The notes: generated from the sequence alone by a model not told the origin. A DNA stretch of 64,000 nucleotides from Bifidobacteriaceae bacterium (GCA_031278655.1 JAITJZ010000010.1:5881-69880), one strand, 5' to 3'. Counted from the stretch's first letter, positions 2,088 to 62,919 are shown. Numbers and translations are program-made.

Positions 2088-4052
2088 TTGGTGGCTATGA
2101 CCGATCCGTCGAGCTACCGGCCGCCGCCGGGGGCGATCCCGACCGATCCGGGGGTCTACCGCTTCCGGGACGCGGTTGGGCGGGTCATTTATGTGGGCAA
2201 GGCCAAGAACCTGCGGGCGCGCCTGGGCAACTATTTCCAGCCGCTCGACTCCCTGCACCCGCGCACCCGCCAAATGGTGACGACGGCGGCCGGCGTCGAT
2301 TGGACGGTTGTCGGCACCGAGGTCGAGGCCCTGGCCCTGGAGTACACCTGGATCAAGCAGTTCGAGCCGCGCTTCAACGTCAAATACCGCGACGACAAGT
2401 CTTATCCCTATCTGGCCGTGACCGTGGCCGAGCCGTTCCCGCGCGCCCAGGTCATGCGCGGCGCCAAGCGCAAAGGCGTCAAATACTACGGGCCCTTCGG
2501 CCACGCCTGGGCCATCCGCGAGACCCTCGACCTGCTGACGCGCGTCTTCCCGCTGCGGACCTGCTCAGCCACAGTCTTCCGGCGCTACCAGGCCCAGGGG
2601 CGGGCCTGCCTGCTGGGCTACATCGAGAAGTGCTCCGCCCCCTGCGTCGGCCGGGTCACCGAGGCCGAGCACCGCCGCGTCGTGGATGACTTCATCGCCT
2701 TCATGGACGGCGACAGCGCCCGTTTCCTGGCCGCCATCGAAGCCGCCATGGCGCAGGCCGCCGCCGCTGAGGACTTCGAGCGCGCCGCCCGCCTGCGCGA
2801 CGACGCGGCGGCCCTGTCACGGGTGGTCGAGCGCAACGCCGTGGTGTTGAGCGAGCAGACCGACGCCGACCTGTTCGCCATCGCCCAGGACCAGTTGGAG
2901 GCCGCCATCCAGGTTTTCTTCATCCGCCGGGGCCGGGTCACCGGCCAGAGGGGCTGGATCGTTGAGAAGGTCGAGGATTTGTCCGATGCCGAGTTGACGG
3001 CCTCGCTCTTGCAGACGGTTTACAGCGGCGAGGACCAGGCGCCGCGAGAGATCCTGGTGCCGACGCCGCCGGCGGGCCTGGCGCAGTTGACGGATTACTT
3101 GCGGGTCCGCCGCGGCGGACCCGTCACCGTCAAGACGCCCCGGCGGGGCGCCAAACGGCGCCTGGCGGAAACGCTGCAGAAGAACGCCGATCAGGCGCTG
3201 GCCTTCCACAAGCTCAGGCGGGGGTCGGACTTGACCAGCCGCTCGCAGGCGTTGAAGGAACTCCAGGAGGCCCTCGACCTTGACGACGCGCCGCTGCGGA
3301 TCGAGTGCTATGACATCTCCCACACCGGCGGGGCCGCCCAGGTCGGCTCGATGGTGGTGTTCGAGGATGGCCTGGCGCGCAAATCGGAGTACCGCCATTT
3401 CAATGTGCGCGGTCCGGACGGACTCGGCGCCGCGGATGACACCGCCGCCATGGCTGAGGTCCTGACCAGGCGCTTCGCCCGCCAAACGGCCGCGAACGAA
3501 GCCCGCCCTGACGGCGGCGGCCAGCCAGACGGCATCGGACCTGGGCAAACGCCCGGCCAAGAGCGGCGGCGCTTCGCCTACCCGCCTAACCTGCTGGTGG
3601 TGGACGGCGGGGCGCCCCAAGTCGGGGCCGCGGCCAAGGCCCTGAAAGACCTGGGCGTGGCGGACGTGGCGCTGATCGGGCTGGCCAAACGGCTGGAGGA
3701 GGTGTGGCGGCCGGGCGAGGCCTTCCCGGTCATCTTGCCGCGCGGCTCTGACGGGCTGTTCCTGCTCCAGCGCGTGCGCGACGAGGCCCACCGCTTCGCC
3801 ATCACCGCCCACCGCAAGCGGCGCTCGAAGGCGATGACGCGCTCGGCGCTGGACGCGGTGGCGGGACTCGGCCCGGCCAAACAGAAGGCGCTGCTGGCGC
3901 GGTTCGGCTCGGTCAAGCGGCTGCGGGCGGCCAGCGTGGAGGAATTGGCGGCGGTCAGATCGATCGGGCCGAAGCTGGCGGAGCGGATCGCCCGGGCCCT
4001 GGCGGACGGCGGGACCGAGGTGCTTGCGGGGGATGAGAAACTGGAACGGTGA
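2088..4052 (+). CDS. uvrC: Excinuclease ABC subunit C
   Basis: 654-aa ORF with an N-terminal GIY-YIG motif (PGVYRFRD...[18 protein letters not shown]) and a C-terminal helix-hairpin-helix region. Alternative ATG start at 2097. Confidence 0.95.
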
Positions 4053-4981
4053 CCCAGCCGAATGACGTCCCGACCTTCCCGGCCGGCATCCCCGTGCGGG
4101 ACGCGCTCGGCGGCAAAGAGGACCGCGGCGAGGTCCTCATCATCACGGGCATGTCCGGCGCCGGGCGGACCCAAGCCGCCGGCGTGCTGGAGGACCTGGG
4201 CTGGTATGTGGTCGACAACCTGCCGCCGCAGATGATCGAGCCGCTGGCCGGGATGATGACCCCGGCCGGGGGCGGGGTCAAGAAGCTGGCGGTGGTCGTG
4301 GACGTGCGCTCGGGGGAGTTCTTCCGCACCTTGATGGACGCGCTGGAGTCGTTGCGGGCCAGCGGCGTCAGCCACCGGATCGTCTTCCTCGACGCCTCCG
4401 ACGCGGAGTTGATCCGGCGCTACGAGTCGGTCCGCCGGCCGCATCCGCTGCAGGGCGACGCCACCGTCCTGACCGGGATCGGCAGGGAGCGGGAGCTGCT
4501 GACCGACCTGCGCGAGCAGGCCGACGACTACGTCGACACCTCGGCCTTCTCGGTCCACGAGTTGAGCGCGCACATGGCGCAGATCGCCGACCCGAGCCAG
4601 AAGGACGAGGTCACGGTGACGGTGTCCTCGTTCGGCTTCAAATACGGCGTCCCCGCGGACGCCAGCTCGGTCATCGACGTCCGCTTCCTGGCCAACCCCT
4701 ATTGGGTGGACGAACTGCGCCATCTCACCGGCGCCGACTTGGCCGTGCGCGATTACGTGATGGCGTCCGGCGAGGCGCAGGCCTTCCTCAAACTCTATGT
4801 CGAGGCCCTGATGGTGTCCCTGGAGGGCTTTGTCCGCCAGCGCAAACGCCATCTGTCGGTGGCGGTCGGTTGCACCGGCGGCAAGCACCGTTCGGTGGCC
4901 ATGACCGAGGTCCTGACCGCCATGCTGCGGGCGCGCGGCGTCAGGGCCCGGGCCAGCCACCGCGACGTGGGGCGCGAATGA
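4049..4981 (+). CDS. rapZ: RNase adapter protein RapZ (P-loop ATPase, YvcJ family)
   Basis: Walker A GMSGAGRT followed by [13 protein letters not shown]. Overlaps the uvrC stop, in the conserved uvrC-rapZ-yvcK-whiA order. Confidence 0.9.
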
Positions 4982-6009
4982 TGCCCGCCGATGCCGTCCG
5001 GCCGGGTCGCGCTGGCGGCGGCCGCGCCCGGGCCAAGGGCGGGCGGCCGCGTCCGCCCCGGGTGGTGGCCCTGGGCGGCGGTCACGGCCTGGCGGCCTCG
5101 CTGCGGGCGCTCAGACACGTCACTTCGGAGTTGACGGCGGTGGTGACGGTGGCCGATTCGGGCGGCTCGTCCGGGCGCTTGCGGGAGGAGTTCAACTGCC
5201 TGCCGCCCGGTGACCTGCGGATGGCGCTGGCGGCCCTGTCCGGCCATGACGAATGGGGTGTGACCTGGCGCGAGGTCCTCCAGCACAGGCTCGGCGGGAA
5301 CGGCGAGCTGGCTGGGCACGCGCTCGGCAACCTGCTGATCATGGGGTTGTGGGAGATGTGGCCGGGCGACCCGGCCACCGGGCTGGACTTTGTCGGCAAG
5401 CTGGTCGGCGCCGAGGGCCGGGTGTTGCCCATGGCCAGCGTGCCCCTGGACGTCGAGGCGGACATCACCCGCCTGGTCGACGGCCGCGAATGGCACACAT
5501 CCGTGCGCGGCCAGGCCAATGTCGCCAAGGCCATGGGCCGAGTCGACGCCGTCCGGCTGCGCCCAGACGGCGCCCCGGCCTGCCCCGAGGCGGTGGCGGC
5601 GGTGGCGGCGGCGGACTGGGTGGTGTTGGGGCCGGGCTCCTGGTACACATCTGTCATCCCGCATCTGCTGATCCCCGAATTGGCGGCGGCGGTGCTGGAT
5701 GATCGCGTCAAGCGCTGCGTCACCTTGAACTTGGAGGGGCAGGCGGGGGAGACCAGCGGTTACTCCCCGGCCGACCATCTCAAAGCGCTTGGCGCCTACG
5801 CGCCCGGCCGCCGCTTCGACGTGGTGATCGTGGACGAGTCCTCGGCCGGGGATTTGACGGAGTTGGACCAATGGGTGTCGCGCCAGGGCGGCCGACTGCT
5901 AGTCTGGCCCGTCCGCAAGTCTGGCCGCGCCGCCGAGCACGACTCGCTCAGATTGGCGGCCGCCTACCGCGAAGCATTCTTGGGAGGGGATCAAGTCCAA
6001 TGGCGCTGA
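4978..6009 (+). CDS. yvcK: YvcK/CofD-like gluconeogenesis factor (UPF0052)
   Basis: [17 protein letters not shown] motif. ATG at 4978 forms an ATGA overlap with the rapZ stop. The track ORF start at 4702 lies inside rapZ and was trimmed. Confidence 0.85.
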
Positions 6010-51520: not shown

Positions 51521-52309
51521 GTGGACCGCTACCAGCGCATCGCCGCCCTGCTGGAGATGTTGGCCAAGAACGGCAAAGTCGAGGTCGAACAGGCCGTTGC
51601 CGCCCTCGGCGCCTCCGCCGCCACCATCCGCCGCGACCTCGTCTACCTGGACGAACAACGCCTGGCGAGGCGCACCCACGGCGGCGCCATCGCCAATTCA
51701 GGCTCGTTCGACTTGCCCTTGCGCTTCAAGACCGGCCGGGCCCTGGCCGAGAAGCAACGCATCGGAGCCGCCGCCGCCGCCCTGGCGCCCGTCGGCGGCA
51801 TCGTCGGCATCAACGGCGGCAGCACAACGCTGGAAGTGGCCCGGGGCTTGGCCGCGCGAGCCGACCTGGTCTCGACCGAGGGCGCGGGCCGGGCGCTGAC
51901 CATTGTCACCAACGCCGTCAACGTGGCCGGCGAATTGCTGGTCCGGCCCCAATTCAAGGTGGTGGTGACCGGCGGCGTGGTGCGCGCCCACTCCTACGAG
52001 CTGTTCGGGCCCCTGGCCGAGCGCTCACTCGAATCGCTGTCAGTGGAACTGGTGTTCCTCGGGGTCGACGGCTTCGACGCGGCCTTCGGCGCCAGCGCCC
52101 ACTCGGAGGCCGAGGCGTCCACCAACTCGATGCTGGCCCTGGCCGCCGCCAAGGTGGTGGTCGTCTGCGACGCGAGCAAAGTGGGGCGACGGGCCTTCGC
52201 CCAAATCTGCCCCCCGACCAAGGTCGACACCTTGGTCACAGACACCGGCGTGGCGCCGCAAGTGGCCGCCCAACTGAAATCCCTCGGCATCAAAGTGATA
52301 GCGGTCTAG
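51521..52309 (+). CDS. DeoR family transcriptional regulator
   Basis: HTH (RYQRIAALLEMLAKNGKVEVEQAVAALGASAATIRRDLVYLDEQ) plus a DeoR C-terminal sugar-phosphate sensor domain. GTG start at 51521 (or 51515); the upstream part of the track ORF is unsupported. Confidence 0.85.
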   Translation: MDRYQRIAALLEMLAKNGKVEVEQAVAALGASAATIRRDLVYLDEQRLARRTHGGAIANSGSFDLPLRFKTGRALAEKQRIGAAAAALAPVGGIVGINGGSTTLEVARGLAARADLVSTEGAGRALTIVTNAVNVAGELLVRPQFKVVVTGGVVRAHSYELFGPLAERSLESLSVELVFLGVDGFDAAFGASAHSEAEASTNSMLALAAAKVVVVCDASKVGRRAFAQICPPTKVDTLVTDTGVAPQVAAQLKSLGIKVIAV

Positions 52310-52442: not shown

Positions 52443-55400
52443 GTGATGACTGACCCGGTGTATGAGATCGACGGCTCTGCGCGCAGTTACTTCGAGGCTT
52501 TGTCGGAGTTTGACCGGCGTAATCTTGATTCCAGCGCGATCCCGACTTTCAAGGTCAGGGTCACCAATGCCACGGTGTTGAACCTGGTGCATCTGTTTTC
52601 GTGGCTTCAGGACCGGGACGGCGCCAATGCGGTGCAGCAGTGCAGGCTTGAGGTGGTCCTAGATCCTGCCGACCCGGAGCCGTACGCGCTGGCCGCGAGG
52701 GTCGCAGCGCTGCTGGGTTCGGAGGAGTGGATAAGGCGAATCGACAATTGGGACACCGCGGAGCATGCCGGGCGAACACGGCGAATCTTGCCGATGATCT
52801 CGATCAATGAGGATACCTATCAGGCGCTCGCCGATCCGGTCCGGAAATTGATCGGCCAGTCGAACGGATCGGAAGCCTTCAAAATAGTCCCTGAGGCGCC
52901 GCCGAAGAGCGACAAGAAAAACGAATCATTCCCTAGATTCGCCCTGCCCGAAGGGCTAGACAGTTCGGTGGCAGCGGTGATCGAAGTATGTGGACGGCTC
53001 CTGTTCATGATCGGTTCCGGAGATAAAGCCGAATCGAGGAGGAGGGTCGAATACAAGCGAAAAGTGTTGTTGAAACAAGATGAAGTTGGCCGCGAGGTTT
53101 TCCGCAGGACCGCAGATTGGCCTTTGCTGGCCTTCCTGCTCTGGACCGCGTTCGACAAAGCGGTCGATATTGCGGAATGTGATGAGCCGAAGCCGAGCCC
53201 GCTTGAAGGGCGGTGGTTGGAGCGTCTGGCCCAGCTCGAGCCGGACGTCCTTGATATCAGCGACGGATTGCTCCAGTTGGCGGAGAACGTTGTGGTCCAC
53301 GCGGGTCCCGACACATCGGAGGGCCGCGCGAAGGGCCGCGGCGTCCTAGCCCTGCGGGTGCACAGCCGGAAGGGCGAATGGCGAGACGGTCCGCTGGGTG
53401 AGCTTTATCCCAATTACTTCCTCGGACGCGACCGCCGTCGAATGATCAACGCGTGGCGCGAACCCAACTCCGGCGAAGATTGGCTGCGCGACCTGTCCAG
53501 CGACGATCTGCTGGACAGAGAATCACACCACCTGGGAGGGGCCGTCCAGCCCTCCTCGCCCGAGGAGCCCGAGGAGCCCGAATGGTGGCTTCGCAACCGC
53601 GCAGAGAGGGCCAGCCGTGAGAGCCGCCGTGGGCAAGTCCAGCAGTATTTGGAGGTCCGGCTAGCCGATCGCGGCGCCAGTGGGGTGGCGGCGACCTTTC
53701 GGGAACGCACTGAGAACGCCGACCTGAAGTCCATTGGCGACCTCCGCGGCTTTTTCGATCCGACGGCAAAGCAGCGGGAAGATTGGAGAACTTTCTCGGG
53801 CACACCTGTGAACGCCGTGAACCATTACGGCCTGGCATTGTTCGACTCGCTGCTCTCTGGCCTCGACGGGAGCCTTGGGGTGGCGAGCCGATCCCCCGAT
53901 GACGCTTGCGATATGTATTCGAGCAGCGGTGACGATCCTGACCAGGGCGGCGATGGCGCCAGCACGGCGGCATCCCTCGGCACACGCTATTCGCTCTTGA
54001 TACCGCTGCGGATGCGCCTGTCGCAGGCGGCGCCATTGGCCCATCACGCCCACGTCGACCTTCGCCTGCCCGCAGATGAGGAGGCCGAGCCGCTGTGCGT
54101 CGAAACGGTCGGCGCCGCGGACTGGAAGAGCTTTCGAGGCACGCTCGAAGGCTGTTCGCCGTCATCCCCCCAAACCAAGATCGGGCATGTTGAATCAGTG
54201 TCTGGCAGTGCCGTCGGCGCAACAGTCAACTGGGGTGTTGAACCGAGAATCGCGGTGTTTGACGCCAGCACGCTCAGCGGATACCAACTCGAAGTTCTGT
54301 GTAAGGCGATCTTGCTCTGGCTCCGCGGCAGGTCGACGACGCACGTGGCGATTCGTGTGCGGGACGAGCACCAGCTGCGCGTCTTGGTCCGGCTGCTGGT
54401 CGTGTTCTTCGACCGCGACGGTCAGAACGCGGCGCTTGAGGGCAGCCAGCTCTATCTGGTCGGTCCGCAGCCGGGTGACGAGTGGTGGCTCCCTGGCACT
54501 CATCTTGGTGACGCGGTCGCCGCGCAATTGAAGCTCTCCGCGGCACGGTCGGTGGGCGGGACCCTGACATCGCCGCTGACCGATGAGCTGACGCGGATGC
54601 TTGCCAGGCACCCCGGTGCGTCTCGGGCCTCGGCGGCGCCGCAGACGGTTCGCTACGAACCGTTTGACCTGAAGGTCAGCGCAGCCCCGAATTCTCCTGA
54701 GACGCTGTTTGATCGCGTTGCGCGGAAGGTGTTGGAGGCGGACATCCAAGACCCGTCAGGGCCGGGTTGCCGACTCGGGGACACGCACGTCCGGATTGGG
54801 TCGAAAGTGCACCTGGGCACCTTTTACGAGGCAGAGCTCCTATTTGGCAACCACTACTACGTCGATCGGTACGCCTGGCTTGTCCGGCGAGCGCTCAAAT
54901 TTCCGGAGCTCCCAGAAGACGAGGTAGCCGCGGTTGGCCAAGACGATGCCTGTTGCGTCATTGGTTATGAGACCTATTCGGAGATGTTGGTCAGGCGCGT
55001 CATCCAGCCGCGAGAGTTCGCTGACAAGCAGTGGATTTATGGGACTCTGGAGGCGGACGGTGACCGAATGCGGCTGCGCGGATTGGAGGCGATTAGCCGC
55101 GAGCCTTGGAATCCTGAGATGAAGCTTGTCTACCTGGTGCCAATTAGCACTACTATGTCCACCTTTCGCAAGATGGACAACGAAGTTCGGCGATGGTTCG
55201 CACAGACGTGGCCAAATTGTGGGCACGAGTTGCCCAAGCCAATCTGTATCACGGTCATCCATGTTCGTAGTGGCTCCGGCGCACAAGGTTCGAACCTAGA
55301 ACAGGAATTCTTCACCCAGCCCAACTCGGACATGAAATTGGTCAAGCTCCAGGAGCTCATCCAGCTCAAACCCCGGAAACCCCGGAAACCCCGGAAACCC

Positions 55401-55607
55401 CAACCCACAGCGACCTGGGTTCGCTACATCCATCAGGTGCAAGCCACCTGGATGGACCCCTTGGCCTGCTCTTATTGCTTCCCCAATGGGGGTTCTGCGA
55501 TCGAGTTGCCACTGGCCGAGCCGGGCAAGTCCCCGGTTGTGCTGTCGCAACTGTTTGGCCGCAAGCCTCAGCCGCCAAGCGCCCTTCGAGCGGATTCGCC
55601 GCGATGA
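52443..55607 (+). CDS. Island gene A: large cytoplasmic protein with GHKL (Bergerat-fold) ATPase motifs and a degenerate PRTase-like C-terminal module
   Basis: 1054 codons. AAGAGG sits 6 nt before ATG 52446 (GTG 52443 is also possible). N-box-like LLQLAENVVVHAG (aa 276-288), G1-like LADRGASGV (407-415), G2-like NHYGLALFDSL (460-470), closing strand GTRYSLLIPL (513-522). C-terminal CCVIGYETYSEMLV...KLVYLVPISTTMSTFRKM...CSYC. No TM segment. Confidence 0.85.
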   Translation: MMTDPVYEIDGSARSYFEALSEFDRRNLDSSAIPTFKVRVTNATVLNLVHLFSWLQDRDGANAVQQCRLEVVLDPADPEPYALAARVAALLGSEEWIRRIDNWDTAEHAGRTRRILPMISINEDTYQALADPVRKLIGQSNGSEAFKIVPEAPPKSDKKNESFPRFALPEGLDSSVAAVIEVCGRLLFMIGSGDKAESRRRVEYKRKVLLKQDEVGREVFRRTADWPLLAFLLWTAFDKAVDIAECDEPKPSPLEGRWLERLAQLEPDVLDISDGLLQLAENVVVHAGPDTSEGRAKGRGVLALRVHSRKGEWRDGPLGELYPNYFLGRDRRRMINAWREPNSGEDWLRDLSSDDLLDRESHHLGGAVQPSSPEEPEEPEWWLRNRAERASRESRRGQVQQYLEVRLADRGASGVAATFRERTENADLKSIGDLRGFFDPTAKQREDWRTFSGTPVNAVNHYGLALFDSLLSGLDGSLGVASRSPDDACDMYSSSGDDPDQGGDGASTAASLGTRYSLLIPLRMRLSQAAPLAHHAHVDLRLPADEEAEPLCVETVGAADWKSFRGTLEGCSPSSPQTKIGHVESVSGSAVGATVNWGVEPRIAVFDASTLSGYQLEVLCKAILLWLRGRSTTHVAIRVRDEHQLRVLVRLLVVFFDRDGQNAALEGSQLYLVGPQPGDEWWLPGTHLGDAVAAQLKLSAARSVGGTLTSPLTDELTRMLARHPGASRASAAPQTVRYEPFDLKVSAAPNSPETLFDRVARKVLEADIQDPSGPGCRLGDTHVRIGSKVHLGTFYEAELLFGNHYYVDRYAWLVRRALKFPELPEDEVAAVGQDDACCVIGYETYSEMLVRRVIQPREFADKQWIYGTLEADGDRMRLRGLEAISREPWNPEMKLVYLVPISTTMSTFRKMDNEVRRWFAQTWPNCGHELPKPICITVIHVRSGSGAQGSNLEQEFFTQPNSDMKLVKLQELIQLKPRKPRKPRKPQPTATWVRYIHQVQATWMDPLACSYCFPNGGSAIELPLAEPGKSPVVLSQLFGRKPQPPSALRADSPR
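55368..55401 (+). repeat. 9-bp tandem repeat (aaaccccgg x3.8) encoding KPRKPRKPRKP inside gene A
   Basis: Direct reading: aaaccccgg at 55368, 55377 and 55386, plus aaacccc at 55395. The period is a multiple of 3. Confidence 0.9.
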
Positions 55608-58600
55608 GCGCTCCCACCCAAGGCGGGCCGCTGGGCGGCCACCCCAATTGGCTGTTCGGTCTCAAACCGAACGCAACGCCACCAGATCGATGCAATAACG
55701 ATGCGCTGGTACGCGACGCCCTGTCCGACGTGTGCTACGGCCACCTGCGCTTGGGCCAGAACGACTTCGAGTTCGCGCTGAACATGGGCGCCTTTTTCAG
55801 CCACAACGAGCCCCGTGTCAGGGCTTGGCTCTCCCAGATCAGCAGCCCAGATCCGAAGCGGCCGCCAGACGGGCAAGCGTTCAACGTCCTGGTTTCGCCG
55901 CTGACGTCACGAAATGCCGCGTTTGTGGCCGCCGTCAACGAGGAGGTCTTCAAGGGCGCTGCCCAAGTGGTCGGCGTGGATGTCGAGGCCGAGTTCAAGG
56001 ATTCTTTCGCCGTCAGGTACGCCGATTTGCGCGCCCTTCGGAGAGACTTGGAAGGGACCGGGCTGAGGCTCGTCCTACATTACGTCGACGACGCCACCGT
56101 CCGCGGCCTCAGCCTGTTGCGCTTGCGCTCGCTGGTGACAGAGCTGTTCGGCGACCGGCGTCACGGCGGCGGCGAAGATTCCCAGAGGGCTGGGGCGCAG
56201 GTGTTTCATTCGGTGTTCGTGCTGGTGGACCGTTGGTCGCCGAACACCTGGAGGAATCTGCTCCAAGACTTCGATCCCCTGGTGCACAGCTACCTCGACA
56301 TCTGGGCGCCCCATCTCAACACGTTTACCAGCGTCTGTCCCGTGTGCCAGGTCAACGATCACCTGCACAAGGCCGAGGACGGCTGTGCAACGGCCCTGCT
56401 GGCGGGGGAAATCCGCTCTCTGCGGATGCGCGAGACGGAGCCGATCCGCTTTGACCGACTGATCGCGCATCAAGCCGAGCCCGCACAGGACCGCGGCGCC
56501 GCGAAGCCCAGGCTCATCCGTTGCTCGAATGGGCAACCTATGCCGGAGCCGGTCCCGGATAGCTGGAAGGGAAGACAAGAGGTCGGCCGTCGCCGCCTGT
56601 GGTGGCGACACCTGCTCACCTACGGGCTGAGACATCTCGGCAGCGAGCCGTTCGTGTCCGGCTCGGACCAGAGCGGCGGTGAGGTTTGGGAGAAGGACCT
56701 GATCAATTGCCCGTCGATCGTCGCCGCCTATCTGATCACAAAGCTGGACCAGATCGCTCGCGGTCGGCCGAGCGAAGTCCCGGGGACACCTGCGGAGCTT
56801 CCCGTCGATCATTTCGCGGCCGCAATCTGGGCCGCCACCACTGGCGAATTGGCGGACCGAAAGTCGGTCCGAGAGGCCGCGTTGGCCGTTGTCAACGGGC
56901 TGATCTTGACCCTGCTAAAGCCTCCGAGAGGTAATGGCGACTGGGCGGCGCCCCCGGCGCCGGGATGGACGGAGGAGCCAGTCCTGGCACAGGTCCAATC
57001 AGCCCGTGAGCAGATGCAGAACCGATGGGCACGCCTGGTCAAGGCACTGGATGGCTTGGCCAAGCAAAAAGAATTCGACCGTTCAATGAGCGACACAACG
57101 GCGTGGGAGAGCCTGCTGCGCTGCCTGATGCGAGCCACTTCAGAATTGGGCGGCACATTGCTGCTTCGTCGGGACACGATGATCCGGGTCTTCGCTTGCG
57201 GAGCCAGCCGCGGCGTGAATCTCCAGCGGCTGATGACCTACTACGTCTACTGCCTGAAGCTGCTGACAAGTCGCGGCCCGGATCGCGCCAAGTCGGCGTT
57301 TCTCGACTACCTGCTGCTCTCAGGGAGCGAAGTCCAGGGCAAGCCGACGAGTTTGCCGTCGCCGCAGGTCCCCTCCAGGACGGTTGGTCAACAGTTTGTC
57401 GATGCTCCGAGCAACAGGTTGGCTATTCCGGATGACATCAAGGCGCGGCTTGCCGAATTCGTGGACTTGGCCTACATCGAGAACACGAAGTGCCTGGAGG
57501 CAGTCATCGATGACATGGGGCCGCTCAGCGCTGGCCAGCCGTCAGAGGCAGATGGGCACGAATACCTGCCGGAGTACTCAGCCGAGTGCCTGACCGGGTG
57601 GCGTTGGCAGGCGGGCTCCGGGCCGGATCTAAACCAGGCGCATGAACTGGCTAGATTGCTCCGGGAGACGGCAGACCTCGTCAGCCCAAACCACCACTCT
57701 GACCCACACAGCGCTTACGACCGGCCGCTTTCCAAGTTGAATGAGCTGTGGGCGTTCTGCCTGGGAAAAGAGTCCGCCAAGTGCGAGGCGCTGCTCGCCC
57801 TGGAGACCCCCGAAGACACGCTCGCGCTGTCCAGCCTGGAGACGGCGCCGATCAGTGCCGGGAGTGCTCAGCCCGCATTCGTCTTGCCGTCATCCGCTTA
57901 CACACAATATGAAGTTGAGCTTGAAGAGAAACCTCGGCATGTCACTTTGGGCCAGTCTGGCGTGGCCCATGAGGTCTGCGCGGTTCAACAATTGGCGCAA
58001 GAAGCCAAAGTCTTCGAGGCAACGTGGCAGGGGACGATTTCCAGTGGGGGCCCTGTTGTTGGCCTGGGGCGGCAGCCCGTTGACGCGGGCGCCGGCACCC
58101 GTCCTTCGATTGTCTTCGGTTTGTCGGCGGCGCAGGAGTCGCAATACCCCGAGGCATACTGCCTGATCAGGCTCGGTTTGACTCCTGACCGCGGCGGCTC
58201 CACGGAGGCAACTCTATTTCTGCACGCGGGGCTCGAGAATGATGAAAAGGTGGACGCGGCCAAGCTGATGAACGCCGTCAGGATCGTGGCCATATTTAGA
58301 GGCAGAATGCTGGACAGACTCCGCTCCGAACAGCGGCGCGGTGTCCTTGACTCTGTCATCACAGGAAAGCTGATCGAGCAGGCTTACGTAAAACAGGGCG
58401 CTCTGGATCACGGTCAGCCGTCTGACAACATCGGGCAGACAACGGGCCTAGCCAAGTACATTGAAGAAGACACAAAGTTCGGTCTTGGCGGGGACGGCCC
58501 CGGCGGCCGGAAGGCCTACGCGCAGGCGCTGAGTGGATACGTCAACTCAGGCATAGCTCAACTCAACCGAGCTGTGGTCATCTATCGGTCGAGGTCCTCA

Positions 58601-59281
58601 ACCACGAGCCCGCAATCCGGTTCGCTCTCCGGTCTGCTCGAGTCGCTCGGGCCAAAGTTTGCCGCCGCCCTGCCGCCCCGCGCCGACCATACACTGACGA
58701 GGATCCTGAGCGCCTGTCGGTCCCTGCCGGGACTCCAGGATCAATCCAAACTGTGGTTGGGTCGTCCCCTCACGAAGGAGCGGCAGGAGGCCGTGGAAGC
58801 GGACGGGGACAGGGTCACGTCATGGATCAACAAGGTGTCAGGAGAGTTCTCGCTTCGGCAAGTCCCCAACTCCGATGGCGATCTGAAGTTGGTTCTCACC
58901 GACCTGGTCCACGTCACCGTCGTGGCCAGCCTGGTTGACAGCGCCGCCCGCCACGGCGCCGGACCGATTCTCGTGGAGGTGGATGAGCACGGATACCTCT
59001 ATGTCACCAACCAAGTCCGCGATGACTTCGACCTTGAATCGATCAGGCGGGGGTTGGCGAGGGACGCCGGCATCTCGCTGCCGGCGGTCGCCGACCTGTT
59101 CTACGAGTCTTCGGGGGATGATAGGAATACCACCGCAGCACATGGACAGCCACGGGGTGTTCGTATAGCATTCGCCGAAGGGCGCCCACCGCCGCCAGTG
59201 AGCTGGCCTGGGAGGCAGCATGACCTGCAAAGTAATAAGTGGCTGAGCGTGGGGGTGCCGCTTTTCCAGCGGTCGACCTGA
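55604..59281 (+). CDS. Island gene B: PRTase-like N-terminal module, long helical body, degenerate histidine-kinase-like ATPase C-terminus
   Basis: 1225 codons from ATG 55604 (ATGA overlap with the gene A stop). PRPP-loop-like LRLVLHYVDDATVRGLSLL (aa 154-172) then CPVC (245-248). C-terminal LVHVTVVASLVDSAARHGAG / ILVEVDEHGYLYVTNQV / AGISLPAVADLF / GVRIAF...WLSVGVPLF follows the N, G1, G2 order of HATPase domains, but the key Asn and Gly residues are replaced. Confidence 0.85.
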   Translation: MSAPTQGGPLGGHPNWLFGLKPNATPPDRCNNDALVRDALSDVCYGHLRLGQNDFEFALNMGAFFSHNEPRVRAWLSQISSPDPKRPPDGQAFNVLVSPLTSRNAAFVAAVNEEVFKGAAQVVGVDVEAEFKDSFAVRYADLRALRRDLEGTGLRLVLHYVDDATVRGLSLLRLRSLVTELFGDRRHGGGEDSQRAGAQVFHSVFVLVDRWSPNTWRNLLQDFDPLVHSYLDIWAPHLNTFTSVCPVCQVNDHLHKAEDGCATALLAGEIRSLRMRETEPIRFDRLIAHQAEPAQDRGAAKPRLIRCSNGQPMPEPVPDSWKGRQEVGRRRLWWRHLLTYGLRHLGSEPFVSGSDQSGGEVWEKDLINCPSIVAAYLITKLDQIARGRPSEVPGTPAELPVDHFAAAIWAATTGELADRKSVREAALAVVNGLILTLLKPPRGNGDWAAPPAPGWTEEPVLAQVQSAREQMQNRWARLVKALDGLAKQKEFDRSMSDTTAWESLLRCLMRATSELGGTLLLRRDTMIRVFACGASRGVNLQRLMTYYVYCLKLLTSRGPDRAKSAFLDYLLLSGSEVQGKPTSLPSPQVPSRTVGQQFVDAPSNRLAIPDDIKARLAEFVDLAYIENTKCLEAVIDDMGPLSAGQPSEADGHEYLPEYSAECLTGWRWQAGSGPDLNQAHELARLLRETADLVSPNHHSDPHSAYDRPLSKLNELWAFCLGKESAKCEALLALETPEDTLALSSLETAPISAGSAQPAFVLPSSAYTQYEVELEEKPRHVTLGQSGVAHEVCAVQQLAQEAKVFEATWQGTISSGGPVVGLGRQPVDAGAGTRPSIVFGLSAAQESQYPEAYCLIRLGLTPDRGGSTEATLFLHAGLENDEKVDAAKLMNAVRIVAIFRGRMLDRLRSEQRRGVLDSVITGKLIEQAYVKQGALDHGQPSDNIGQTTGLAKYIEEDTKFGLGGDGPGGRKAYAQALSGYVNSGIAQLNRAVVIYRSRSSTTSPQSGSLSGLLESLGPKFAAALPPRADHTLTRILSACRSLPGLQDQSKLWLGRPLTKERQEAVEADGDRVTSWINKVSGEFSLRQVPNSDGDLKLVLTDLVHVTVVASLVDSAARHGAGPILVEVDEHGYLYVTNQVRDDFDLESIRRGLARDAGISLPAVADLFYESSGDDRNTTAAHGQPRGVRIAFAEGRPPPPVSWPGRQHDLQSNKWLSVGVPLFQRST

Positions 59282-61258: not shown

Positions 61259-61446
61259 CGCGCTCCAACCGAGTCGTTGGGCGGCCCGCCCCGGCGCCGG
61301 GGACGCGGCGATGGTCACAGTTTGATTGCGCCAGCGCGTGACGCTGGCGCGGGGTGGTAAACTCGCCGAGCCGTCTTCGTGGCCTCGCGGCCGCTCGGGC
61401 GGCGTGTCCTGTCCGTTTCTATAACCAAAGACGAGTCTTACATTCT

Positions 61447-62919
61447 ATGACAACATCCCTACCCGCAGCAGTCTCTGAGGCCCCGGTGCCCGAAGTCGCC
61501 GTCAACGACATCGGCACAAGCGAAGACCTGCTGGCCGCCATCGACGGCACGATCAAGTACTTCAACGATGGCGACATCGTTGAGGGAACTGTGGTCAAAG
61601 TCGACCGCGACGAGGTCCTCCTCGACATCGGCTACAAGACGGAAGGCGTTATCCCGTCGCGTGAGCTGTCCATCAAACACGACATCGATCCCTCGCAGAT
61701 CGTCTCCGTCGGCGACAAGGTCGAAGCCCTCGTCCTCCAGAAGGAGGACAAAGAAGGCCGTCTGATCCTGTCGAAGAAGCGGGCTCAATACGAGCGCGCC
61801 TGGGGCGCGATCGAGAAGATCAAAGAAGCCGACGGCATTGTCACCGGCACCGTCATCGAAGTCGTCAAGGGCGGCTTGATCGTTGACATCGGGCTGCGCG
61901 GGTTCCTGCCGGCCTCGCTGGTGGAGATGCGGCGCGTGCGCGACCTGCAGCCCTATGTGGGTCAAGAGCTGGACGCCAAGATCATCGAACTCGACAAGTC
62001 GCGCAACAACGTGGTCCTGTCGCGCCGCTCCTGGCTCGAACAGACTCAGTCCGAGGTCCGCTCGACCTTCTTGTCCCAGCTCAAAGAGGGCCAAGTGCGC
62101 ACGGGCGTTGTCTCATCGATCGTCAACTTCGGGGCCTTCGTGGACCTGGGCGGGGTCGACGGACTGGTCCACGTCTCCGAGCTGTCCTGGAAGCACATCG
62201 ACTACCCGAACGAGGTTGTGCACGTCGGCCAGGAGGTCACTGTCGAGGTCCTGTCGGTCGAGCTCGACCGCGAGCGGGTCTCGCTGTCCCTCAAGGCCAC
62301 CCAGGAAGACCCGTGGCAGTTGTTCGCGCGCACCCACGCCATCGGCCAGGTGGTGCCCGGCAAGGTCACCAAACTGGTGCCCTTCGGCGCCTTCGTGTCC
62401 GTCGAGGACGGGATCGAGGGCCTGGTGCACATCTCCGAGTTGGCGGTGCGCCACGTCGAGCAGCCTGAGCAGGTCGTCAAGGTCGGTGAGACGGTCTTCG
62501 TCAAGGTCATCGACGTGGACCTGGACCGCCGCCGCATCTCGTTGTCCCTCAAGCAGGCCAACGAGGGCGTGGACCCGGAGGGCGACGATTCGACCTTCGA
62601 CCCGGCGCTCTACGGCATGGCCGCCGAGTACGACGACGACGGCAACTACAAGTACCCCGAGGGCTTCGACCCGGAGACGAACGAGTGGATGGAGGGCTTC
62701 GAGGCCCAGCGCCAAGCCTGGGAGGAAGCCTACGCCGACGCCTTGGCGCGCTGGCAGGCGCACAAGGCCCAGGTTTCGACCGCCCGCGCGGCCGACCAGC
62801 ACGCGGCCGTCGAAGACGGCACGGCCACGGACTACCGCTCCGAGTTGTCGCAGACCGAGGGCACCTTGGCCTCGGACGAGGCGTTGGCCGCCCTGCGGGA
62901 GAAGCTGACCAGCAACTGA
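61447..62919 (+). CDS. rpsA: 30S ribosomal protein S1
   Basis: Four S1 repeats (GDIVEGTVVKVD..., GTVIEVVKGGLIVDIG, GVVSSIVNFGAFVDLG, GKVTKLVPFGAFVSV) and an acidic C-terminus. ATG at 61447. Confidence 0.95.
   Translation: MTTSLPAAVSEAPVPEVAVNDIGTSEDLLAAIDGTIKYFNDGDIVEGTVVKVDRDEVLLDIGYKTEGVIPSRELSIKHDIDPSQIVSVGDKVEALVLQKEDKEGRLILSKKRAQYERAWGAIEKIKEADGIVTGTVIEVVKGGLIVDIGLRGFLPASLVEMRRVRDLQPYVGQELDAKIIELDKSRNNVVLSRRSWLEQTQSEVRSTFLSQLKEGQVRTGVVSSIVNFGAFVDLGGVDGLVHVSELSWKHIDYPNEVVHVGQEVTVEVLSVELDRERVSLSLKATQEDPWQLFARTHAIGQVVPGKVTKLVPFGAFVSVEDGIEGLVHISELAVRHVEQPEQVVKVGETVFVKVIDVDLDRRRISLSLKQANEGVDPEGDDSTFDPALYGMAAEYDDDGNYKYPEGFDPETNEWMEGFEAQRQAWEEAYADALARWQAHKAQVSTARAADQHAAVEDGTATDYRSELSQTEGTLASDEALAALREKLTSN

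Follow-up and report, generated by a model that had tools for sequence, protein, structure and literature searches.

A giant protein split in two within a low-GC island

The window analysed here is the whole stretch of 64,000 nucleotides, one strand, from a Bifidobacteriaceae bacterium (GCA_031278655.1 JAITJZ010000010.1:5881-69880), and all positions in it are counted from its first letter. Its overall GC content is about 70%, and a stretch from 52 to 62 kb, at about 62%, coincides exactly with an island of four co-directional genes, which we call A, B, C and D. The drop in GC over these genes fits a recent horizontal acquisition, with low-GC Firmicutes, where most of the relatives occur, as the most likely donor. 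The start ATG of B and the stop codon of A overlap as ATGA (4 nt), and the two genes are translationally coupled; as the start of D also overlaps the stop of C, the co-directional genes apparently form one operon. The genes of the island and its two flanks are as follows.

52443..55607, + strand: gene A, N-terminal half of a split giant protein, 1054 aa
55604..59281, + strand: gene B, C-terminal half of the split giant, 1225 aa
59322..59948, + strand: gene C, receiver-like, without output domain, 208 aa
59945..61258, + strand: gene D, DUF2971, predicted ADP-ribosyltransferase-like effector, 437 aa
51335-52309: DeoR-type regulator gene, one flank of the island
61354-62919: ribosomal protein S1 gene (rpsA), the other flank of the island

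The original prediction, made from the DNA, treated B as a stand-alone gene and described its product as having a phosphoribosyltransferase (PRTase)-like head and a kinase-like but apparently catalytically dead tail. The relatives of B show that it is instead the back half of a protein of about 2,100 residues (2,000-2,200), which is a single polypeptide in most organisms and is encoded here by A and B. An exhaustive HMMER search covering 1.84 billion representatives returned 491 relatives of B at E≤1e-3, and 218 at E≤1e-10, as clusters at 50% identity; these proteins are mostly 1,950-2,250 residues long, and the head of B aligns near their residues 1000-1300. From about residue 1000 to the end of the giants B is collinear with them, in three blocks (B residues 40-270, 500-640 and 1100-1175), the third of which is the C-terminus of the giants, and the product of A covers their residues ~30-1000 (E 1e-98 to 1e-30, local phmmer). 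Since A matches the front and B the remainder of the same giants, A and B together represent the fission of one protein. The same split, with the same 4-nt overlap, is found in other Bifidobacteriaceae contigs from metagenome-assembled genomes (MAGs), including the protein pair P0164/P0006 and the locus L003, and as the split homologues there are only 38-53% identical to A and B, it can be neither an assembly artefact nor a recent frameshift. A fusion artefact of assembly, which the original prediction had named as one way in which it could fail, is ruled out for B on the same grounds. Other lineages have split the giant at a different domain boundary, as P0036, P0153 and about 30 others (1,200-1,500 aa) start at the first PRTase-like domain (residue ~674 of A) and run through the whole of the B part.

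The order of the genes downstream of the giant was checked in the window and in 11 further distinct loci with enough downstream sequence. In all 11, the giant is followed by a receiver-like open reading frame (ORF) of 150-214 aa and then by a DUF2971 gene, and the receiver-like ORF sits between the other two wherever both flanking genes are present. The sources include Christensenellaceae, Lachnospiraceae, Oscillospiraceae, Eubacterium, Bariatricus, Candidatus Stoquefichus and an unclassified Bacillota MAG, among others. The giant, C and D are a conserved, horizontally mobile cassette, which has three genes where the giant is unsplit. Its neighbours vary, and are often genes of mobile-element or defence type that encode an integrase, Phd, Fic, the ParAB/TraG proteins of integrative and conjugative elements (ICEs), HNH, PD-(D/E)XK, FRG or the SMC-like DUF2326.

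Direct annotation says little about these proteins. A, B and C had no match in Pfam, NCBIfam, PADLOC, PHROGs or PDB sequences, by single-sequence and family-profile searches, and PADLOC gave none for any of A, B, C and D at E≤0.1; the giants themselves contain no Pfam domain, and a 40-member profile of their family found no PDB sequence. A word-indexed search gave only 2 relatives each for A and B, those for B being a fragment with 46% identity and B itself, whose database entry is a hypothetical protein from a Bifidobacteriaceae MAG, and an initial profile search of genome contigs with a B alignment gave no matches. No significant paralogy was seen between A and B by BLASTP, and hhalign comparisons between internal modules were insignificant (the head of B against the first PRTase-like domain, and the tail of B against the GHKL region of A), and we do not regard either pair as recent duplicates.

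Several observations concern the edges of the island and of its genes. Flanking repeats, promoters and terminators were scanned for over the island, and none stood above chance; an imperfect 23-nt inverted repeat, 78% complementary, at the island edges (52252-52274 / 61276-61298) may well be chance in GC-rich DNA. Around the fission point (55550-55680), the C-terminus of A, SQLFGRKPQPP, and the N-terminus of B, NWLFGLKPNATPP, are alike and resemble the SQLYGLK linker of unsplit giants, which may reflect a small duplication at that point; the likeness is not seen in the P0164/P0006 pair. Further upstream in gene A, at 55368-55401, lies a 9-nt tandem repeat, AAACCCCGG, that encodes KPRKPRKPRKP (residues 972-984 of A, a loop with a predicted local distance difference test (pLDDT) score below 50 in the AlphaFold2 model), and this could be a slippage-prone linker of variable length. 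In another Bifidobacteriaceae MAG (L002, identical to L027), the first 174 residues of the A homologue form a separate ORF (2176-2700, against 2697-5223 for the rest, with a 4-nt overlap), either because the gene is split once more or through a frameshift. Upstream of the cassette that MAG has genes for an ATP-grasp (DcsG_N) and a luciferase-like protein, unlike the window. A gene of the uncharacterised nucleotidyltransferase family NTP_transf_5 adjoins the cassette in two unrelated loci (L020 6867-8075 and L024 1745-3007), downstream once and upstream once. Upstream of the cassette in L009 (1-2994), an 895-aa protein with HATPase_c_3/HATPase_c is followed by a domain-less 681-aa ORF, and the two could be a separate MORC-like defence pair.

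Domains of the giant protein

From its N-terminus, the whole giant is made up of an N-terminal alpha/beta region, a GHKL-like ATP-binding domain, a middle alpha/beta domain and PRTase-like domain 1 with a CxxC, and then of PRTase-like domain 2 with a CxxC (the head of B), a long helical region, an invariant His and a degenerate tail resembling the catalytic and ATP-binding (CA) domain of kinases. The corresponding features of the window are listed here.

53214..54008, + strand: GHKL/Bergerat-like ATP-binding domain, tentative (A residues ~258-522)
54660..55577, + strand: PRTase-like domain 1 (A residues ~740-1045), with the phosphate-loop variant LVYLVPISTTMST, which lacks the acidic pair
55467-55478, + strand: CSYC after PRTase-like domain 1
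55721..56413, + strand: PRTase-like domain 2, the head of B (B residues ~40-270), by Foldseek, motif alignment and conservation
55880-55936, + strand: pyrophosphate-loop strand FNVLVSPLTSRNAAFVAAV (B residues 93-111)
56063-56119, + strand: Asp-Asp loop LRLVLHYVDDATVRGLSLL, of the phosphoribosyl pyrophosphate (PRPP) type
56336-56347, + strand: CPVC
57101..57523, + strand: conserved helical block (B residues ~500-640), the second block shared with the giants, helical in the model
58409..58411, + strand: His936 in ALDHGQPSDNI, family motif K-A-R-A-x-x-H
58886..59278, + strand: degenerate CA/Bergerat-like tail (B residues ~1095-1225)

All of the motifs that the original prediction quoted from B were recovered, position for position, in the ORF at 55604-59281, and their conservation in hundreds of relatives sets them apart from chance matches. 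The AlphaFold2 model of B, computed from an alignment of B and 25 family members, has an overall pLDDT of 66, and the head is modelled at 80-90. The head has the five-stranded parallel alpha/beta core fold of PRTases, and a Foldseek search of the PDB returned nearly exclusively type I PRTases, led by HGPRT and PyrR at a probability of 0.99-1.0, with modest target-normalised TM-scores (TMt 0.39-0.47) and E-values (0.07-0.3). The family consensus at the Asp-Asp pair, fHyVDDtIisGxTfxR, holds a canonical VDDxIxSGxT loop, and in three independent hhalign comparisons its best local match is precisely the PRPP motif of E. coli Hpt (P 0.012), Gpt (P 0.07) and PyrE (P 0.009). The strand, the two acidic residues and the x-x-[ST]-G-x-[ST] pattern of a PRPP motif are thus recognisable, with B itself reading LVLHYVDDATVRGLS. 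Across the family alignment, D162 is conserved in 148/160 sequences, D163 in 127/160 and G168 in 153/161, position 167 is Ser or Thr in 119/161 and position 170 Thr or Ser in 125/161, while R173, R210 and S212 are nearly invariant and C245 and C248 are each present in 157/157. B itself has Arg167 in place of Ser/Thr and Ser170 in place of Thr, and the Arg before the Gly makes its loop slightly more degraded than is usual in the family. The original description of a PRTase-like head whose acidic loop is intact is therefore borne out both by the fold and by the alignment of the loop to Hpt, Gpt and PyrE.

A second module of this kind, which the original prediction had overlooked, lies at the C-terminal end of A. 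In the AlphaFold2 model of A (pLDDT 76), PRTase-like domain 1 matches 4paw_A (E 2.8e-5, TMt 0.61) as well as HGXPRT and UPRT (probability 1.0) by Foldseek. Its loop reads P-I-[NSG]-[ST]-T-L-[TS]-T in the family, with no acidic pair; T907 is found in 158/158 sequences, and the Cys pair is at least 90% conserved. The giant is thus built around two tandem PRTase-like modules with a CxxC after each. The type I PRTases (HGPRT, OPRT and UPRT, and the binding variants PyrR and ComF-type proteins) have the same fold as the head of B and the C-terminal domain of A (probability 0.99-1.0), and B has the same spacing of strand, Asp-Asp and Gly-containing phosphate loop as Hpt, Gpt and PyrE. Unlike in these enzymes, the modules here are tandem copies within a protein of ~2,100 aa, each followed by a CxxC; the first copy lacks the acidic pair, the second has Arg for Ser/Thr in the B loop, and neither has a match to Pfam Pribosyltran; any catalysis by them is putative.

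Gene A also holds the better-preserved ATP-binding motifs, which are in A and not in B and had likewise escaped notice. Bergerat motifs I (Asn), II (Asp-x-Gly), III (Gly-rich) and IV (Thr) follow one another in order in A as LAENVVVHAG (N282), LEVRLADRG (D409), NHYGLALF (G463) and GTRYSLLIP, corresponding to LLQLxEN, LExxxxD-x-[SG], HHYGLxxF and G-T-x-Y-x-x-x-x-P in the family, and their key residues are close to invariant (N282 134/134, D409 134/136, G463 139/139, G476 126/139, T514 130/139). The order of secondary structure in the model (helix, strand, strand, lid helices, helix, three strands) fits as well. At the level of the fold, the region weakly matches the Hsp90 N-domain (Foldseek E 0.03, probability 0.3-0.4), and pieces of it match kinase cores by hhalign at P 0.004 and 0.012; no similarity was found by hhalign to single HtpG, MutL or GyrB sequences, nor any Pfam match. 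We therefore assign residues 258-522 of A only tentatively as a GHKL-like domain and the probable site of ATP binding. A group of shorter proteins, P0166-P0175 (667-846 aa), shares only the GHKL-like region (A residues ~268-700) and has neither PRTase-like domain nor the B part; together these make up a broader family around the same ATPase-like module.

Bacterial MORC-like systems are among the defence proteins regulated by a GHKL ATPase, as is VcSduA, a Shedu protein with an N-terminal GHKL domain (PMC12137116). Gene A resembles them in that a defence-type protein carries, towards its front, a putative Bergerat-type module in which the Asn of motif I and the Asp of motif II are invariant and which would presumably control an effector. 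It differs in the lack of a match to Pfam HATPase_c or HATPase_c_3, in a large insertion between motifs I and II, and in that the module, whose fold assignment is tentative, is fused to PRTase-like domains and not to a nuclease.

The tail of B was described originally as following the motif order of a histidine kinase, and its motifs SLVDSAARHG, VTNQV and AGISLP all lie within 58886-59269. By hhalign, a tail profile of 50 sequences was compared with seven kinase cores (EnvZ, PhoR, PhoQ, CpxA, KdpD, BasS and one from the locus of a relative) and matched them with a probability of 85% and P 6e-6, while all of 14 control comparisons (reversed references, receiver domains and unrelated modules) gave P≥0.1. 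The tail helix I-x-E-L-I-x-S-A-x-k-h aligns to the N-box helix, and the alignment runs on through the G1/F-box region; motif I of HtpG, MutL and GyrB likewise finds its best match in this helix (P 0.02-0.05). In the AlphaFold2 model, residues ~1100-1223 have the topology H-E-E-H-H-E-E-E, which is the Bergerat order with a very short lid. The residues that bind Mg-ATP in such domains (N-box Asn, G1 DxGxG, G2 GxGxG) and those for Mg and adenine are mostly gone: B and 36/50 relatives have Ser at the N-box position, where 8/50 have Asn, DxGxG is absent, with an invariant Asn1136 (49/50) closing that strand, and at the G2 position only G-I-S-L is left, with G1156 in 50/50. Structural likeness of B to kinases, which had also been expected, was not seen, as no histidine kinase was among the top 50 Foldseek PDB matches for B, and there was no Pfam HATPase_c match. 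On the strength of the profile comparison, and not of a structural match, we read the tail as a degenerate relative of the histidine-kinase CA (Bergerat) domain. The loss of the N-box Asn and of DxGxG makes 'pseudokinase-like' a fair description, and the view of the tail as kinase-like and apparently dead is fair as well.

Between head and tail, the original prediction had about 650 mostly helical residues, and this is roughly right: the model is helical at residues ~319-725 and ~870-1080. The description misses a beta-rich stretch, modelled at low confidence, at residues ~728-860. Within the conserved block at ~500-640, R522, D560, K563 and E626-N627 are conserved. Further downstream, His936 is invariant in 106/106 relatives and lies ~175 residues upstream of the CA-like tail. 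It had been proposed to sit where the H-box of a kinase would be, in the dimerisation and histidine phosphotransfer (DHp) domain, and as a canonical H-box the region has to be rejected, as residues 881-1000 show no similarity to kinase DHp domains (hhalign P 0.8), the DHp/HisKA hairpin with its H-box His is not found in B, and the model puts His936 itself, despite its invariance, in a loop of pLDDT below 50. The residue is important, while a role as phospho-acceptor is only putative.

The receiver-like protein and the DUF2971 effector

The product of gene C, to which the original prediction had referred as receiver-like, does resemble response-regulator receiver (REC) domains. A family of 5 sequences matched eight REC domains by hhalign with a probability of 88.5% and P 2.7e-6 (controls P≥0.1), and with 12 sequences P was 7e-5, the match spanning the whole receiver including its Thr/Ser. 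In the alignment, D12 and D13 of C correspond to the acidic pocket, D93 to the acceptor Asp and the Thr/Ser of LTSA to the REC T/S. All three Asp residues are invariant in a 4-sequence alignment, and the acidic pair and the Asp at the acceptor position are kept in all 12, so that the family combines REC similarity with pocket, acceptor and Thr/Ser. The conserved Lys (K-P) after beta5 is absent from the 12-sequence alignment, and C had no match to Pfam Response_reg or to PDB sequences.

Gene D, a conserved partner suggestive of function that had been overlooked, matches Pfam PF11185 (DUF2971) at 24.4 bits (cutoff 22, E 7.4e-5) and phrog_1762 at E 1.4e-10, and PF11185 is likewise present in its homologues from L005, L006 and L009. 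To our knowledge, DUF2971 has so far been known only from the stand-alone Aristaios protein. Aristaios is a validated lactococcal abortive-infection/antiphage protein with a predicted ADP-ribosyltransferase (ART) fold (PMC11381338), and DUF2971 has been predicted to be a DarT/AbiGi-like ART of the HYE clade (PMC12522546). The H-Y-ExE pattern described in the latter study fits the stretches HYT..., SQWRAY and EESEWR of D. D and Aristaios have the same Pfam domain, with the predicted ADP-ribosyltransferase fold, in common (PMC11381338, PMC12522546). Unlike Aristaios, which has 316 aa, acts alone and is found on lactococcal plasmids, the DUF2971 proteins here have 340-437 aa with a conserved C-terminal extension, and in every case follow the giant and the receiver-like gene. 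The C-terminal block past DUF2971 in D and its homologues in L004, L005 and L009 (W-P-I-R-S-I-x-V-G-P ... H-Y-C ... P-Y-R) is unannotated, and contact with the giant or with the receiver-like protein may be made through it.

Proposed function of the cassette

The cassette is probably a conflict or anti-phage system. More specifically, we lean somewhat towards an undescribed sensor-adaptor-toxin conflict system, in which the giant would be the sensor and the switch, C the adaptor and D the toxin. The ligand of the PRTase-like domains would be a phosphoribosyl compound (PRPP or a nucleotide) or else nucleic acid, the GHKL-like domain of A would serve as an ATP-driven conformational switch, and the pseudo-CA tail and helical region of B would form a scaffold that docks or regulates C, which in turn would gate D. 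Activation, for example by a phage or another invading element, could then cause growth to stop, with a target in the cell or the invader being ADP-ribosylated. A number of points weigh against this. A, B and C lack a characterised homologue and a PADLOC, PHROG, Pfam or NCBIfam match, the model of B is of moderate confidence (pLDDT 66) with its tail never among the Foldseek PDB matches, and fold comparison gives the GHKL domain of A weak support (Foldseek E 0.03, hhalign P ~0.004-0.012). The sensing role given to each component, like the target of D, is pure inference. Moreover, some loci adjoin polysaccharide-biosynthesis genes and not defence genes, and no member of the family was found by tblastn with a giant in PLSDB plasmids or INPHARED phages, or in a scan of IMG/VR.

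The components also bring to mind a divergent phosphorelay, in which the GHKL domain of A or the tail, acting in trans, would use ATP to phosphorylate His936, from which the phosphoryl group would pass to Asp93 of C, and phospho-C would switch the DUF2971 effector on or off. Such a scheme would follow the logic of Detocs, a two-component-like antiphage system of a histidine kinase (DtcA), a receiver that acts as a buffer (DtcB) and a receiver-effector (DtcC), with non-canonical parts. The cassette is similarly an operon of a large kinase-like protein, a stand-alone receiver-like protein and a toxic effector, in an order that is conserved, and has a CA-like domain together with a receiver-like protein that keeps the acidic pocket D12/D13, Asp93 at the acceptor position and the Thr/Ser; His936, invariant in 106/106 and ~175 residues upstream of the CA-like domain, and the invariant ATP-binding motifs of A would provide the other ingredients. 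However, the surroundings of the His do not resemble DHp/HisKA (P 0.8), and the His lies in a low-confidence loop instead of mid-helix; the N-box Asn and the G1 box are missing from the tail, the C family lacks the conserved receiver Lys, the Foldseek GHKL matches of A are Hsp90 and not kinases, and no member tested has a Pfam HisKA, HATPase_c or Response_reg match. Detocs itself differs further, as there is no PADLOC match to DtcA, DtcB or DtcC, the CA-like tail is without ATP-binding residues, the effector here is a DUF2971 protein without receiver domain and not PNP, and the giant adds a GHKL-like domain and two PRTase-like domains. Taken together, we consider a phosphorelay unlikely.

Somewhat less likely still is that PRTase-like domain 2 is an enzyme and the main effector or signal generator, consuming PRPP or nucleotides or making a phosphoribosyl signal that activates D, which would make B catalytic. 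The family loop VDDxIxSGxT is the canonical PRPP motif, R173, R210 and S212 are nearly invariant, and PRTase effectors are known in defence: ShosTA and retron effectors use a PRTase-fold domain in a phage-defence context, and ShosT is reported to couple PRTase and pyrophosphatase activities (PMC11961720). These effectors are small and have demonstrated enzymatic toxicity, unlike the PRTase-like domains of the cassette, which are internal to a giant with a separate toxin gene, D, that is always present. In addition, the loop of B is degraded (Arg167 for Ser/Thr, Ser170 for Thr), domain 1 is entirely without the acidic pair, and PRTase folds also occur as pure binding modules, such as PyrR, which is among the Foldseek matches.

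A non-immune cassette, be it an addiction or toxin-antitoxin-like maintenance system, an inter-bacterial or regulatory system of a mobile element, or a decaying remnant with a disabling A|B frameshift, would suit its occurrence on ICE-like and integrase-bearing regions, the lack of a match to known defence models and the further breakage of the A homologue in L002 with its separate 174-aa N-terminal ORF, but appears improbable, given that the A|B split is kept, with its 4-nt start/stop overlap and both ORFs intact, between MAG homologues 38-53% identical, that the key residues are all kept in A, B, C and D, and that a single-gene DUF2971 relative is an experimentally validated antiphage protein (PMC11381338).

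Beyond the sensor-adaptor-toxin reading that we favour, one could also speculate about a two-layer immune or conflict system, in which the giant would couple the sensing of a phosphoribosyl compound or nucleic acid, by its tandem PRTase-like domains, to an ATP-driven GHKL switch, the second layer being a non-canonical relay from His936 to the Asp of a minimal receiver, which would license a DarT-like DUF2971 ART. We give this little credence; if true, two-component chemistry and ADP-ribosylation would be joined in a signalling architecture that is new.

The superfamilies of all four building blocks are known, and sensor-plus-toxin operons, Detocs among them, are already known. None of the models in the libraries searched corresponds to the giant family, to its architecture or to the obligate association with a receiver-like protein and DUF2971, and a literature search found no paper describing the family or the cassette. 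The main interest is thus the cassette and not B alone. It brings to light an unannotated family of giants of ~2,100 aa in 491 clusters at 50% identity, whose differing split points across lineages constitute a natural domain dissection that marks the domain boundaries, and it gives DUF2971 a partner. The cassette is present in cultured isolates (Candidatus Stoquefichus massiliensis AP9, Bariatricus sp. SGI.154 and Herbivorax sp. ANBcel31), and its strictly conserved context leads to a concrete, testable hypothesis of a sensor-adaptor-toxin system in gut Firmicutes and termite-gut Bifidobacteriaceae.

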